A stretch of DNA of 64,000 nucleotides from Escherichia phage cardinal: the sequence record PQ567651.1; one strand, written 5' to 3'. Below are positions 24,173-25,411 of the stretch, one piece after another. The notes beneath the pieces were generated by a model. It did no database searches and had not been told where the DNA came from. It saw nothing but the letters and a program-made list of their open reading frames with translations. The translations under genes were made by a program, and so were the position numbers. How positions within the stretch are numbered: the first letter of the stretch is position 1; every line of letters starts with the position of its first letter.

Positions 24173-25411
24173 CTATTGATTAATGGTTCCACCAATGAAC
24201 ACAAATGTTTGTGGTTCAATAACCACTGTTTCACCTGTGTTTGGGTTTTGCATAAAACAATTTTCAGGATACTTTTCTTTCAACTCTTCTGCTGTTTCAG
24301 CAAAGACTGGTTCATCTTGCACAATAAGAAAGTATAGCTGTTTGCCACACATATCTTCTCGTGGATAACCAGCTTCATCCAAATAAGGAAGTACCCATTT
24401 CAACACCCAACTATTTGCATCAGGGTTACAAGTACACAGCATAAAAGACGTTTCTGATTCAGAACGCATACGCCCTAACAGATACAGCATTTCATATTGT
24501 GTAAAATGTGTAAGTTCGTCAAACCCTACCATCGAATACTGTGTACCTTGATGGTTAGTTTCAGCAGTTACGTTATCATTTTCAAGATGGTCAAATTTAA
24601 GTGTACCACCTTTTGTGGCTCTGAACTCCATCTCCATAGCCTGTTCTCTTACGTGAGGCTTTAATGGTAGATAAAGTTTCTTAGCTTCAGTAAACAGACC
24701 ACCAGATTTACGTAAAGCTGTTGTATTTTTACGGAAAAGAATACCACCAAACAGTGGATCTTTATATGCGTATTTAAGTGCCTTTAGAAGTAGCAGACGG
24801 CTTTTGCCGCTATTCCCAGTAACGAAGATGTGATCGCCACGTCTAAACACGACATAACTGCTTGGAGTTTCAAAGCAATATTTCTTATCATCACTTGTCA
24901 TTACCTCATGAATTTTTAGATATGTGCTAGGTTTACCTTGAATGTTAAACGGAACACGTTTACCAAAAGGATTTTCAATATATCCTCGTAATGGGTGTCC
25001 TGCTTGCTGTAATGCAATAAGATCCCCAACAAGAATTTCAAAATGTTTTTTGGATTTTTTCTTCTTGTAGAAAACAAAGCGATGTTCCATACTTAATTCT
25101 TGGAAGACACCTACTCCGTTTGTGATACAATACAGATTATCTTTAGCATCATATTCTACAAAAGATGGTGTAACTAATTCAAGACGTTTATTTCTTGGAT
25201 TGTATTGATAAATATCCTCACCATCATATTCACTTATTTGTTTCCAGCCGTCTCTTGTTAAGTATTCTGTTTCTGCTGAAACACAACCTGCCGCACCACC
25301 ATAAATCATTACTTCAGGCATAAGATCCATAGCTAGTGTTTGTTTGCCAGGTTGGGCTTTAACTTCAATATCTACATTTTCAAAAGATTGTTTGACAGGT
25401 TTCCTTGCCAC
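24173..25411 (-). CDS. terL: terminase large subunit, ATPase domain (exon 1), containing an in-frame mini-intein
   Basis: 412 aa; Walker B MVGFDELTHF and C-motif TCNP present; Walker A is only complete after removing residues 43-200. Confidence 0.8.
   Translation of the reverse strand: MARKPVKQSFENVDIEVKAQPGKQTLAMDLMPEVMIYGGAAGCVSAETEYLTRDGWKQISEYDGEDIYQYNPRNKRLELVTPSFVEYDAKDNLYCITNGVGVFQELSMEHRFVFYKKKKSKKHFEILVGDLIALQQAGHPLRGYIENPFGKRVPFNIQGKPSTYLKIHEVMTSDDKKYCFETPSSYVVFRRGDHIFVTGNSGKSRLLLLKALKYAYKDPLFGGILFRKNTTALRKSGGLFTEAKKLYLPLKPHVREQAMEMEFRATKGGTLKFDHLENDNVTAETNHQGTQYSMVGFDELTHFTQYEMLYLLGRMRSESETSFMLCTCNPDANSWVLKWVLPYLDEAGYPREDMCGKQLYFLIVQDEPVFAETAEELKEKYPENCFMQNPNTGETVVIEPQTFVFIGGTINQ
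24812..25285 (-). other. mini-intein (about 158 aa, no endonuclease domain) in the terminase P-loop
   Basis: Begins CVSAETEYLTRDGW, has SMEHRFVF (TxxH-like block B), ends YVVFRRGDHIFVTGN followed by Ser; precise excision gives YGGAAG|SGKS, a canonical GxxxxGKS Walker A. Confidence 0.65.

Follow-up and report, generated by a model that had tools for sequence, protein, structure and literature searches.

A predicted mini-intein in the Walker A loop of the large terminase subunit of Escherichia phage cardinal

Inteins in phage terminases, and in their P-loops in particular, are well known (PMC2807308; PMC5050341). Splicing of the mycobacteriophage inteins TerL1-a and TerL1-b is efficient and has been argued to be necessary for the active site and for assembly of the pentamer (PMC5050341), and in the survey of Kelley et al. 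2016 terminase_6-type TerL proteins carried inteins solely in the C-motif (PMC5050341). The RDF intein of mycobacteriophage Bethlehem splices completely in a reporter, and the G316H substitution slows this splicing (PMC5050341). The AceL NrdHF intein, which was assigned to class 3 by experiment, has Ala1, Ser65, His68, Arg69, Met70, Cys124, the terminal residues Thr144-Gly145-Asn146 and Ser at +1 (PMC7891396). It splices in minutes and is inactivated by G145H, and Arg69 has been proposed to compensate for the missing His (PMC7891396); neither C124A nor C124S retains activity, and modelling puts the thiol 3.0 Å away from the scissile carbonyl (PMC7891396). Here we describe an element in the large terminase subunit gene (terL) of Escherichia phage cardinal (sequence record PQ567651.1). 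The window, by which we mean the whole stretch of 64,000 nucleotides that was analyzed, belongs to a phi92-like E. coli myovirus (Stephanstirmvirinae, genus Justusliebigvirus), and all genes treated here lie on its minus strand. It is very likely that window positions 24812-25285 encode a genuine mini-intein which has lost its endonuclease and which most likely excises itself from TerL by the standard four steps.

The N-terminal terL open reading frame (ORF) was found by translation to read ...EVMIYGGAAG, then CVSAETEYLTRDGW...SMEHRF...KKYCFETPSSYVVFRRGDHIFVTGN, then SGKSRLLLL.... The original prediction held that this terminase has no intact Walker A motif as encoded and that removal of residues 43-200 would restore one. 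Indeed, the regular expression [AG]xxxxGK[ST] was without a match in the 412-aa ORF, and deletion of residues 43-200 produced exactly one match, GAAGSGKS at residue 39. The boundaries proposed for the insert proved exact to the base. Its Cys start, its SMEHRF block B and its TGN end followed by Ser were all seen in the translation, and its computed size (158 aa, 18.45 kDa) agreed with the 18 kDa or so that had been expected. The insert interrupts the Walker A loop of TerL after the fourth residue and before the fifth (G-A-A-G / S-G-K-S), and the Pfam Terminase_6N match, which covers residues 201-361 (E=2.6e-10) from profile position 8, begins directly after the insert.

Residues of the insert that are diagnostic of inteins were located by translation and by alignment. 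The T/S-x-x-H motif of block B is represented by Ser65-Met-Glu-His68, which aligned to Ser65/His68 of the AceL NrdHF-1-1 intein structure (PDB 6ZGQ). At the C-terminal junction, where inteins have Asn followed by Cys, Ser or Thr, Asn158 is followed by Ser. The position in block F that is usually Asp in class 1 inteins is Cys137 here; the assignment of this residue to F:4 was backed by alignments to C124 of 6ZGQ and to the TFIIB intein ('YAYDL' vs 'kYCFe').

The AlphaFold2 model of the insert had a predicted local distance difference test (pLDDT) score of 87.1 and a predicted template modelling (pTM) score of 0.81; the underlying alignment comprised 15 sequences, the word-indexed protein search having given 26 proteins that were mostly truncated. 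All of the top 50 Foldseek matches in the PDB were inteins, bacterial intein-like (BIL) domains or hedgehog Hint domains, and the best of them was 6ZGQ (E=1.2e-6, template modelling score 0.63-0.71). Consistent with the structural match, a profile hidden Markov model (HMM) of the family to which the insert belongs matched the AceL NrdHF-1-1 intein with E=3.8e-9 (full length, E=1e-8). In blocks F and G, this alignment set KKYCFETPSSYVV...FVTGN/S against EFH[C124A]LSVPGKSFVV...SVTG[N146A]/S of 6ZGQ.

The extent of this family was assessed by an exhaustive profile search over 1.84 billion protein cluster representatives (50% identity clusters), which recovered 9824 proteins at E<=1e-3 and at least 2218 at E<=1e-10. 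Residues were counted in the top 174 proteins, which contributed 206 N-terminal and 195 C-terminal regions. Both Cys at intein residue 1 and His at B:10 were present in 206/206 N-terminal regions, Ser or Thr occupied B:7 in 196/206, and B:12 was hydrophobic (V/M/F/I/L), with Trp in 1/206. Among the C-terminal regions, block F:4 was Cys in 193/195, G:5 was Thr or Ser in 186/195, G:6 was Gly in 192/195 and G:7 was Asn in 195/195, while the +1 residue was Ser in 106, Cys in 58 and Thr in 31 (total 195). Thirty-two of the inteins were minis of 139-173 aa and most others were 300-340 aa long. As judged from these sequences, the lineage is very large and mostly phage-borne, and it keeps Cys1 together with Cys at F:4, Thr at G:5 and Gly at G:6.

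Members of the family were also found in host genes other than terL. The RtcB protein of Bacillus phage BCP8-2 carries one at its catalytic DIG/CGM site, and a DnaB-like helicase of an Enterocloster phage carries one in the P-loop, at GGSG/SGKT. Further hosts are RecA, RecD, SNF2 and ResIII helicases, Toprim primases, ribonucleotide reductase and PhoH-like ATPases. Two family proteins had LAGLIDADG_3 matches, which were not placed within their inteins. Some family proteins have two to three intein copies (four to six matched stretches), for example P0028, of 2602 aa. Within the 64-kb window there was no second intein of the family, the best other six-frame match having E=0.2.

Alignment with intein-free homologues, which had been suggested as a check, revealed the predicted ligated loop in natural proteins, as GGAAGSGKS in Cronobacter phage CR9 and GGAAGAGKT in phage SUSP1. 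The intein-free loop of CR9 (Vequintavirinae) reads MGGAAGSGKSYLLQL, and that of SUSP1 (Ounavirinae), whose TerL resembles the Felix O1 type, reads LYGGAAGAGKT; Felixounavirus TerL aligned in one piece across the junction of the protein spliced in silico. The same P-loop site is occupied in Vibrio phage PWH3a-P1 by a 146-aa mini-intein (GGSAG/CLDRDTEFL...FITGN/SGKS) and in Escherichia phage TH18 by a 329-aa intein whose middle is of homing-endonuclease size. Mini forms at this site were also present in the metagenomic terminases P0001-P0014, among them P0008, with a 152-aa mini version and an N-extein nearly that of TH18. The rV5-like lineage therefore shows the empty (CR9), endonuclease-sized (TH18) and mini (P0008) states. 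When the window intein was compared with the endonuclease-sized form, the large middle was found to be cleanly gone between ...GKRVPF and NIQGK.... A chance Cys...Asn-Ser pattern was considered and was ruled out by the fold, the homology and the empty-site alleles. The start of the Terminase_6N match at residue 201, together with the 2218 family representatives at E<=1e-10, likewise places the pattern far beyond chance.

The insert did not vary within Justusliebigvirus (100% identity); in Phapecoctavirus its identity was about 87%, and in Klebsiella phage 05F01 it was 72%. The exteins were about 88-89% identical in Phapecoctavirus-type phages, and the intein values track those of the extein. 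Relative to phage nepoznato, the ratio of nonsynonymous to synonymous substitution rates (dN/dS) was 0.062 in the intein, compared with 0.078 in the extein; the synonymous rate is near saturation here, and the corresponding ratio of uncorrected proportions (pN/pS) agrees. By this comparison of sequences, purifying selection constrains the insert no less strongly than the terminase itself. Since its identity tracks that of the extein and its dN/dS is low, a decaying or functionless insertion is unlikely. In TH18 (ON075799, 2411-5156), two ORFs, each called 'terminase large subunit', make up the broken terL, and a gene for an HNH homing endonuclease comes after them; several selfish elements are thus stacked in this one gene.

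A splicing route can be proposed from the residues that are present. terL would be translated as a 79.2-kDa precursor in which the ATP-binding loop is split by the Hint domain. Cys1 would undergo an N-S acyl shift, with Ser65/His68 of block B activating the N-terminal junction and straining the scissile bond, and the N-extein would be transferred to Ser+1. Asn158 would then cyclize without a penultimate His, for which Arg69 may compensate, as has been proposed for its counterpart in AceL NrdHF, and an O-N shift would leave a free 18.45-kDa intein and a 60.8-kDa TerL whose GAAGSGKS loop is whole. Cys137, at the position of the usual catalytic Asp, may assist the reaction or act as a covalent relay. 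Cys1 is probably used, because it is invariant in the family; Cys137 is probably more than a spectator, given its invariance in the family and the existence of a class 3 relative. Our best estimate is that splicing would be constitutive and that the reaction would be started at Cys1. With the P-loop split by the Hint domain, unspliced TerL should not bind ATP, and packaging of DNA should consequently depend on splicing; by analogy, such a dependence would agree with the argument made by Kelley et al. for the mycobacteriophage TerL inteins. The element would represent the fixed, vertically inherited descendant of a mobile intein that keeps an endonuclease-sized insert in related phages.

Several observations weigh against the presence of an active intein. 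The Hint-domain HMM search, one of the checks named in the original prediction, failed to bear it out: none of the curated models (Pfam Intein_splicing, Hint and Hom_end_hint; TIGR01445/TIGR01443) matched the insert, there being no Pfam match at E<=1 and no NCBIfam match, including the TIGRFAM intein N- and C-terminal models, at E<=10. A single-sequence phmmer search of the insert against the PDB returned no intein, just spurious WW-domain-like matches at E>0.04. The penultimate His (G:6) is replaced by Gly157, and the block-F His is also missing. Of some 133 close relatives (from Justusliebigvirus and Phapecoctavirus, with Klebsiella phage 05F01), none was seen to have an intein-free allele, so that movement of the element within this lineage is conjectural. 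The papers searched contained no proteomic or biochemical sign of splicing in this phage group, and the closest characterized relative has Ala1 and belongs to class 3, which makes the reaction route here uncertain.

The silence of the curated HMMs appears to reflect a gap in what these models cover and not to count against an intein, and it was set aside as a negative because the profile and fold searches, including the homology to 6ZGQ, were positive. Other family members were also below threshold in the Pfam intein and Hint models, scoring, for example, 21.7 bits against a cut-off of 35.8 bits. All other proposed computational checks that could be run supported the reading of the insert as an intein. 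As for Gly157, Gly is the rule at this position in the family, and a penultimate His is common but not obligatory: AceL NrdHF (Gly145) and the RDF intein (Gly316) both splice, and introduction of His impairs both (PMC7891396; PMC5050341). The silence of the standard HMMs, the absent penultimate His and the fixation of the insert in the whole subfamily, with no empty site among close relatives, would also fit a degenerate, non-splicing Hint-like domain that is kept in the mature terminase, perhaps with a new role. That explanation is very improbable. Such a domain would split an 8-residue Walker A loop in the middle, and yet the insert keeps all of the residues needed for splicing (Cys1, S-x-x-H, Asn158 and Ser+1) under purifying selection (dN/dS 0.06). 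The splicing residues are, moreover, invariant across hundreds of members in unrelated host proteins, and efficient splicing is known from members that share the Gly-Asn end (PMC7891396; PMC5050341). A further proposal is that the intein can splice but does so conditionally: responding to redox state or temperature (a Cys1-Cys137 disulfide would be one means), it would set the time at which the terminase is activated late in infection and thus serve as a regulator, not a neutral selfish remnant. In its favor, two conserved cysteines are found at active-site positions of solved relatives (PMC7891396), disulfide-bonded precursor conformers were seen for a mutant of the related RDF intein (PMC5050341), a class 3 DnaB intein from mycobacteria has been reported to sense oxidative stress (PMC6195587), and the element has been kept without an endonuclease at extein-like selective constraint. 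This purifying selection is, however, equally explained by lethality of non-splicing, and the AceL NrdHF and RDF inteins are fast and constitutive in vitro and in E. coli; we therefore judge a conditional intein to be improbable.

The chemistry of a splicing intein is a separate matter, as the Cys found in block F instead of the usual Asp would be compatible with more than one splicing class. Cys137 could be an obligatory covalent nucleophile, through either a class 3 route, in which it would attack the N-terminal junction to give a block-F branched thioester before transfer to Ser+1, or a relay from Cys1 to Cys137 to Ser+1, and not plain class 1 splicing. Cys at F:4 and Thr/Ser at G:5 are near-invariant in the family, and Cys137 and Thr156 reproduce this class 3 signature. 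AceL NrdHF, the best match by both Foldseek and HMM, shares the xCT signature and the T-G-N end and is experimentally class 3 (PMC7891396), and Ser at +1, present here and commonest in the family, is typical of class 3 (PMC2807308). However, Cys1 is invariant, and class 3 inteins are defined by its absence; B:12 is Phe70, not the Trp of class 3, although AceL NrdHF with Met70 is nonetheless of that class; block B has the class-1-like S/TxxH; and Kelley et al. 2016 appear to place the mycobacteriophage relatives with class 1 (PMC5050341). On balance, an obligatory role for Cys137 is possible but rather unlikely, and an intein started at Cys1 is preferred. Equally tentative is the suggestion that the dual-cysteine lineage constitutes a bridge between the classes, either as a dual-thiol relay (Cys1 to Cys F:4 to +1) or as a scaffold on which either Cys can start the reaction. 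This we think doubtful, but if true, it would meet the criticism that no stepwise path leads from class 1 to class 3 inteins (PMC7664689).

In this genome terL is interrupted a second time. The exon 1 ORF ends ...FVFIGGTINQ*, while the TerL proteins of BME3, phi92 and EmilieFrey are continuous, at 694 aa. Rfam Intron_gpI matched at 23265-23453(-) with 47.0 bits (just short of the gathering score of 50; E=1.9e-10) and, more weakly, on the 5′ part at 23957-24188(-) with 19.5 bits. The predicted 969-nt group I intron is inserted between the ATPase and nuclease domains of TerL. It is absent from BME3 and most close relatives and present in 8/66 near-identical records, which marks it as a mobile, sporadic element. 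Joining of 24183 to 23213 gives ACC AT/A TTT (T-I-F) within ...GGTIFDNPELI... and a 694-aa TerL with one residue different from BME3; the expected rules for the splice sites are also followed, with U (the final T of exon 1) before the 5′ splice site and an intron that ends ...AAAAAG. A boundary at 24181..23213, where the BLAST alignment broke, was rejected, since the intron would then end in A, while 24182..23214 gives the same protein and fits the U/G rule. Phapecoctavirus nepoznato has an intron at the same site, with exon 1 also ending FVFIGGTINQ*, and the intron ORF is annotated as an HNH homing endonuclease in phages UAB_1 and nepoznato. The terL of Pectobacterium phage CB7 (Vequintavirinae, PMC7344957) is similarly split by an HNH-associated group I intron, for which splicing of the mRNA was confirmed by cDNA sequencing (PMC7344957). 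CB7 belongs to another phage genus and is likened by host gene, not by insertion position, and the likeness concerns the intron, not the intein. From the sequence, the terminase of the window appears to need RNA splicing and then protein splicing, from 79.2 kDa to 60.8 kDa plus 18.45 kDa.

Table 1. Window coordinates of the interrupted terL gene, its predicted intein and neighboring genes
Feature	Position	Strand	Basis and remarks
terL N-terminal ORF	24173..25411	(-)	412 aa; from ORF list
terL N-extein, TerL residues 1-42, GTG start	25286..25411	(-)	ORF list, translation check; ends ...IYGGAAG, first half of Walker A
YGGAAG preceding the insert	25286-25303	(-)	Translation check
Predicted mini-intein, 158 codons, 18.45 kDa	24812..25285	(-)	Translation, Hint fold, 6ZGQ homology, family-invariant residues
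Intein Cys1	25283-25285	(-)	Within CVSAETEYLTRDGW (25244-25285); ORF residue Cys43
Intein block B SMEHRF (Ser65-x-x-His68-Arg69-Phe70)	25076-25093	(-)	Translation check
Intein block F Cys137	24875-24877	(-)	Within KYCFETPSSYVV (24848-24883)
Intein end Thr156-Gly157-Asn158 (TGN)	24812-24820	(-)	Translation check
SGKS after the insert	24800-24811	(-)	Translation check; Ser+1 at 24809-24811
terL C-extein in exon 1, second half of Walker A to ...FVFIGGTI (rest of ATPase domain)	24183..24811	(-)	Terminase_6N; exon end from intron-less BME3
Predicted group I intron in terL, 969 nt, after GGTI codons	23214..24182	(-)	Rfam Intron_gpI and absence in relatives
HNH homing endonuclease ORF in intron, 226 aa	23377..24057	(-)	Pfam HNH_3 E=1.8e-9 and helix-turn-helix motifs
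terL exon 2, nuclease domain to stop codon	22358..23213	(-)	NCBIfam TIGR01630 E=2.5e-6; colinear with BME3 TerL residues 411-694
Portal gene downstream of terL	20692-22260	(-)	
Spanin genes upstream of terL	25420-26086	(-)	

The features of the locus are collected in Table 1. The region 22300-25500 shares 99% identity with phages vB_vPM_PD114 and UAB_1, as it does with about 50 further records, and the start of the N-extein is the annotated TerL start in phages phi92, BME3 and EmilieFrey. Upstream of terL, the ORF at 25420-25749 (-) encodes a lipoprotein-like protein of 109 aa with a signal sequence ending LMMTGC, and it is overlapped by an ORF at 25655-26086 (-) for a 143-aa protein that has a hydrophobic stretch at its N-terminal end. 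In related phages, the annotation of the corresponding pair is o-spanin and i-spanin (Rz-like), and the placement of such a lysis-gene pair next to packaging genes is slightly unusual. A cluster of 14 tRNA genes (Rfam tRNA, 38.6-65.5 bits) occupies 26931-29689 (-), closely upstream of the genes for the spanins and TerL and at a position corresponding to the annotated tRNA block of phage phi92.

The intein was unannotated in the genome records inspected. In the BASEL S5 table (PMC8594841), 0 inteins are listed for EmilieFrey, which bears an identical copy. The same table (Bas60-Bas62) lists two inteins for its sister phage PaulScherrer and one for its sister phage JohannJBalmer, with one intron each; since the terL copy in EmilieFrey goes uncounted, the entries for the other two must refer to different, polymorphic inteins. 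Four records labelled 'Campylobacter phage' with host C. jejuni (MG065639, MG065645, MG065656 and MG065689; about 146 kb) are 99.1% identical to this region and look like mislabelled or contaminant Justusliebigvirus genomes.

The terL product of phi92-like and phAPEC8-like coliphages, of which about 130 genomes have been sequenced, therapy candidates and BASEL phages included, is thus predicted to be an inactive precursor that would need protein splicing before ATP binding and, in the genome described here, RNA splicing too. This would have consequences for annotation, for TerL-based phylogenies (from which 158 residues would have to be removed), for heterologous expression of the terminase and for phage engineering. 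Intein research would gain a candidate tool of small size, an E. coli-native, endonuclease-free intein of 158 aa that has Ser+1 and ends in Gly-Asn, and the E. coli plaque assay would offer a convenient genetic system in which to study the role of the block-F Cys alongside Cys1. The element is ordinary in kind; what is modestly new is the missing annotation, the large family below the Pfam threshold and the conserved dual-cysteine signature.

Among described systems, the mycobacteriophage inteins TerL1-a and TerL1-b (Kelley et al. 2016, PMC5050341) resemble the element in lying in the Walker A loop of a large terminase ATPase. Their host belongs to terminase_1 and not to Terminase_6N, their site is at or next to GK/T, three residues downstream of G/SGKS, and they are likened by site only, not by homology of the intein sequence. 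The TerL intein of Acinetobacter phage TaPaz (gp49 residues 35-388; PMC8228797) also lies near the N-terminus of a myovirus TerL but, at 354 aa, has the size of an endonuclease-containing intein; it was compared by description only, and related Acinetobacter phage terminases are about 31% identical to the TerL of the window. Also comparable are two inteins of mycobacteriophage Turj99 (cluster A1). The TOPRIM intein scored 40.9 bits with the family profile and has Cys1, VYC-VSVP and SVTGN/C, and the RDF (phosphoesterase) intein, of 317 aa, has Cys1, TxxH, VWC-LRVP, LTGN/S and Gly316, although its match to the profile is weak (19.2 bits). Both differ from the window intein in length (312-317 aa), in their LAGLIDADG-type endonuclease region and in their host genes. 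With the same 317-aa length and Gly316, the Turj99 RDF intein is the counterpart of the Bethlehem RDF intein. By this analogy there is a precedent for efficient splicing, in an intein whose close Turj99 counterpart bears the same signature.

The closest characterized relative is AceL NrdHF-1-1 (6ZGQ; Hoffmann et al. 2020, PMC7891396), the sole solved structure strongly matched by the family profile and also the best fold match. It shares with the window intein Ser65/His68/Arg69, the F:4 Cys followed by x-x-x-Pro, the Thr-Gly-Asn end with Ser+1 and the lack of His at F:13 and G:6; its source contig looks phage-derived, and its size of 146 aa compares with the 158 aa found here. In contrast to the contiguous window intein, it occurs naturally as two halves separated by a GIY-YIG gene, it resides in the host ribonucleotide reductase NrdF and not in TerL, and B:12 is Met instead of Phe. 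The two also differ at the first residue, which is Ala1 in this proven class 3 intein and Cys1 in the window. AceL NrdHF is the only biochemically dissected close relative of the family, and it is one that has lost Cys1.

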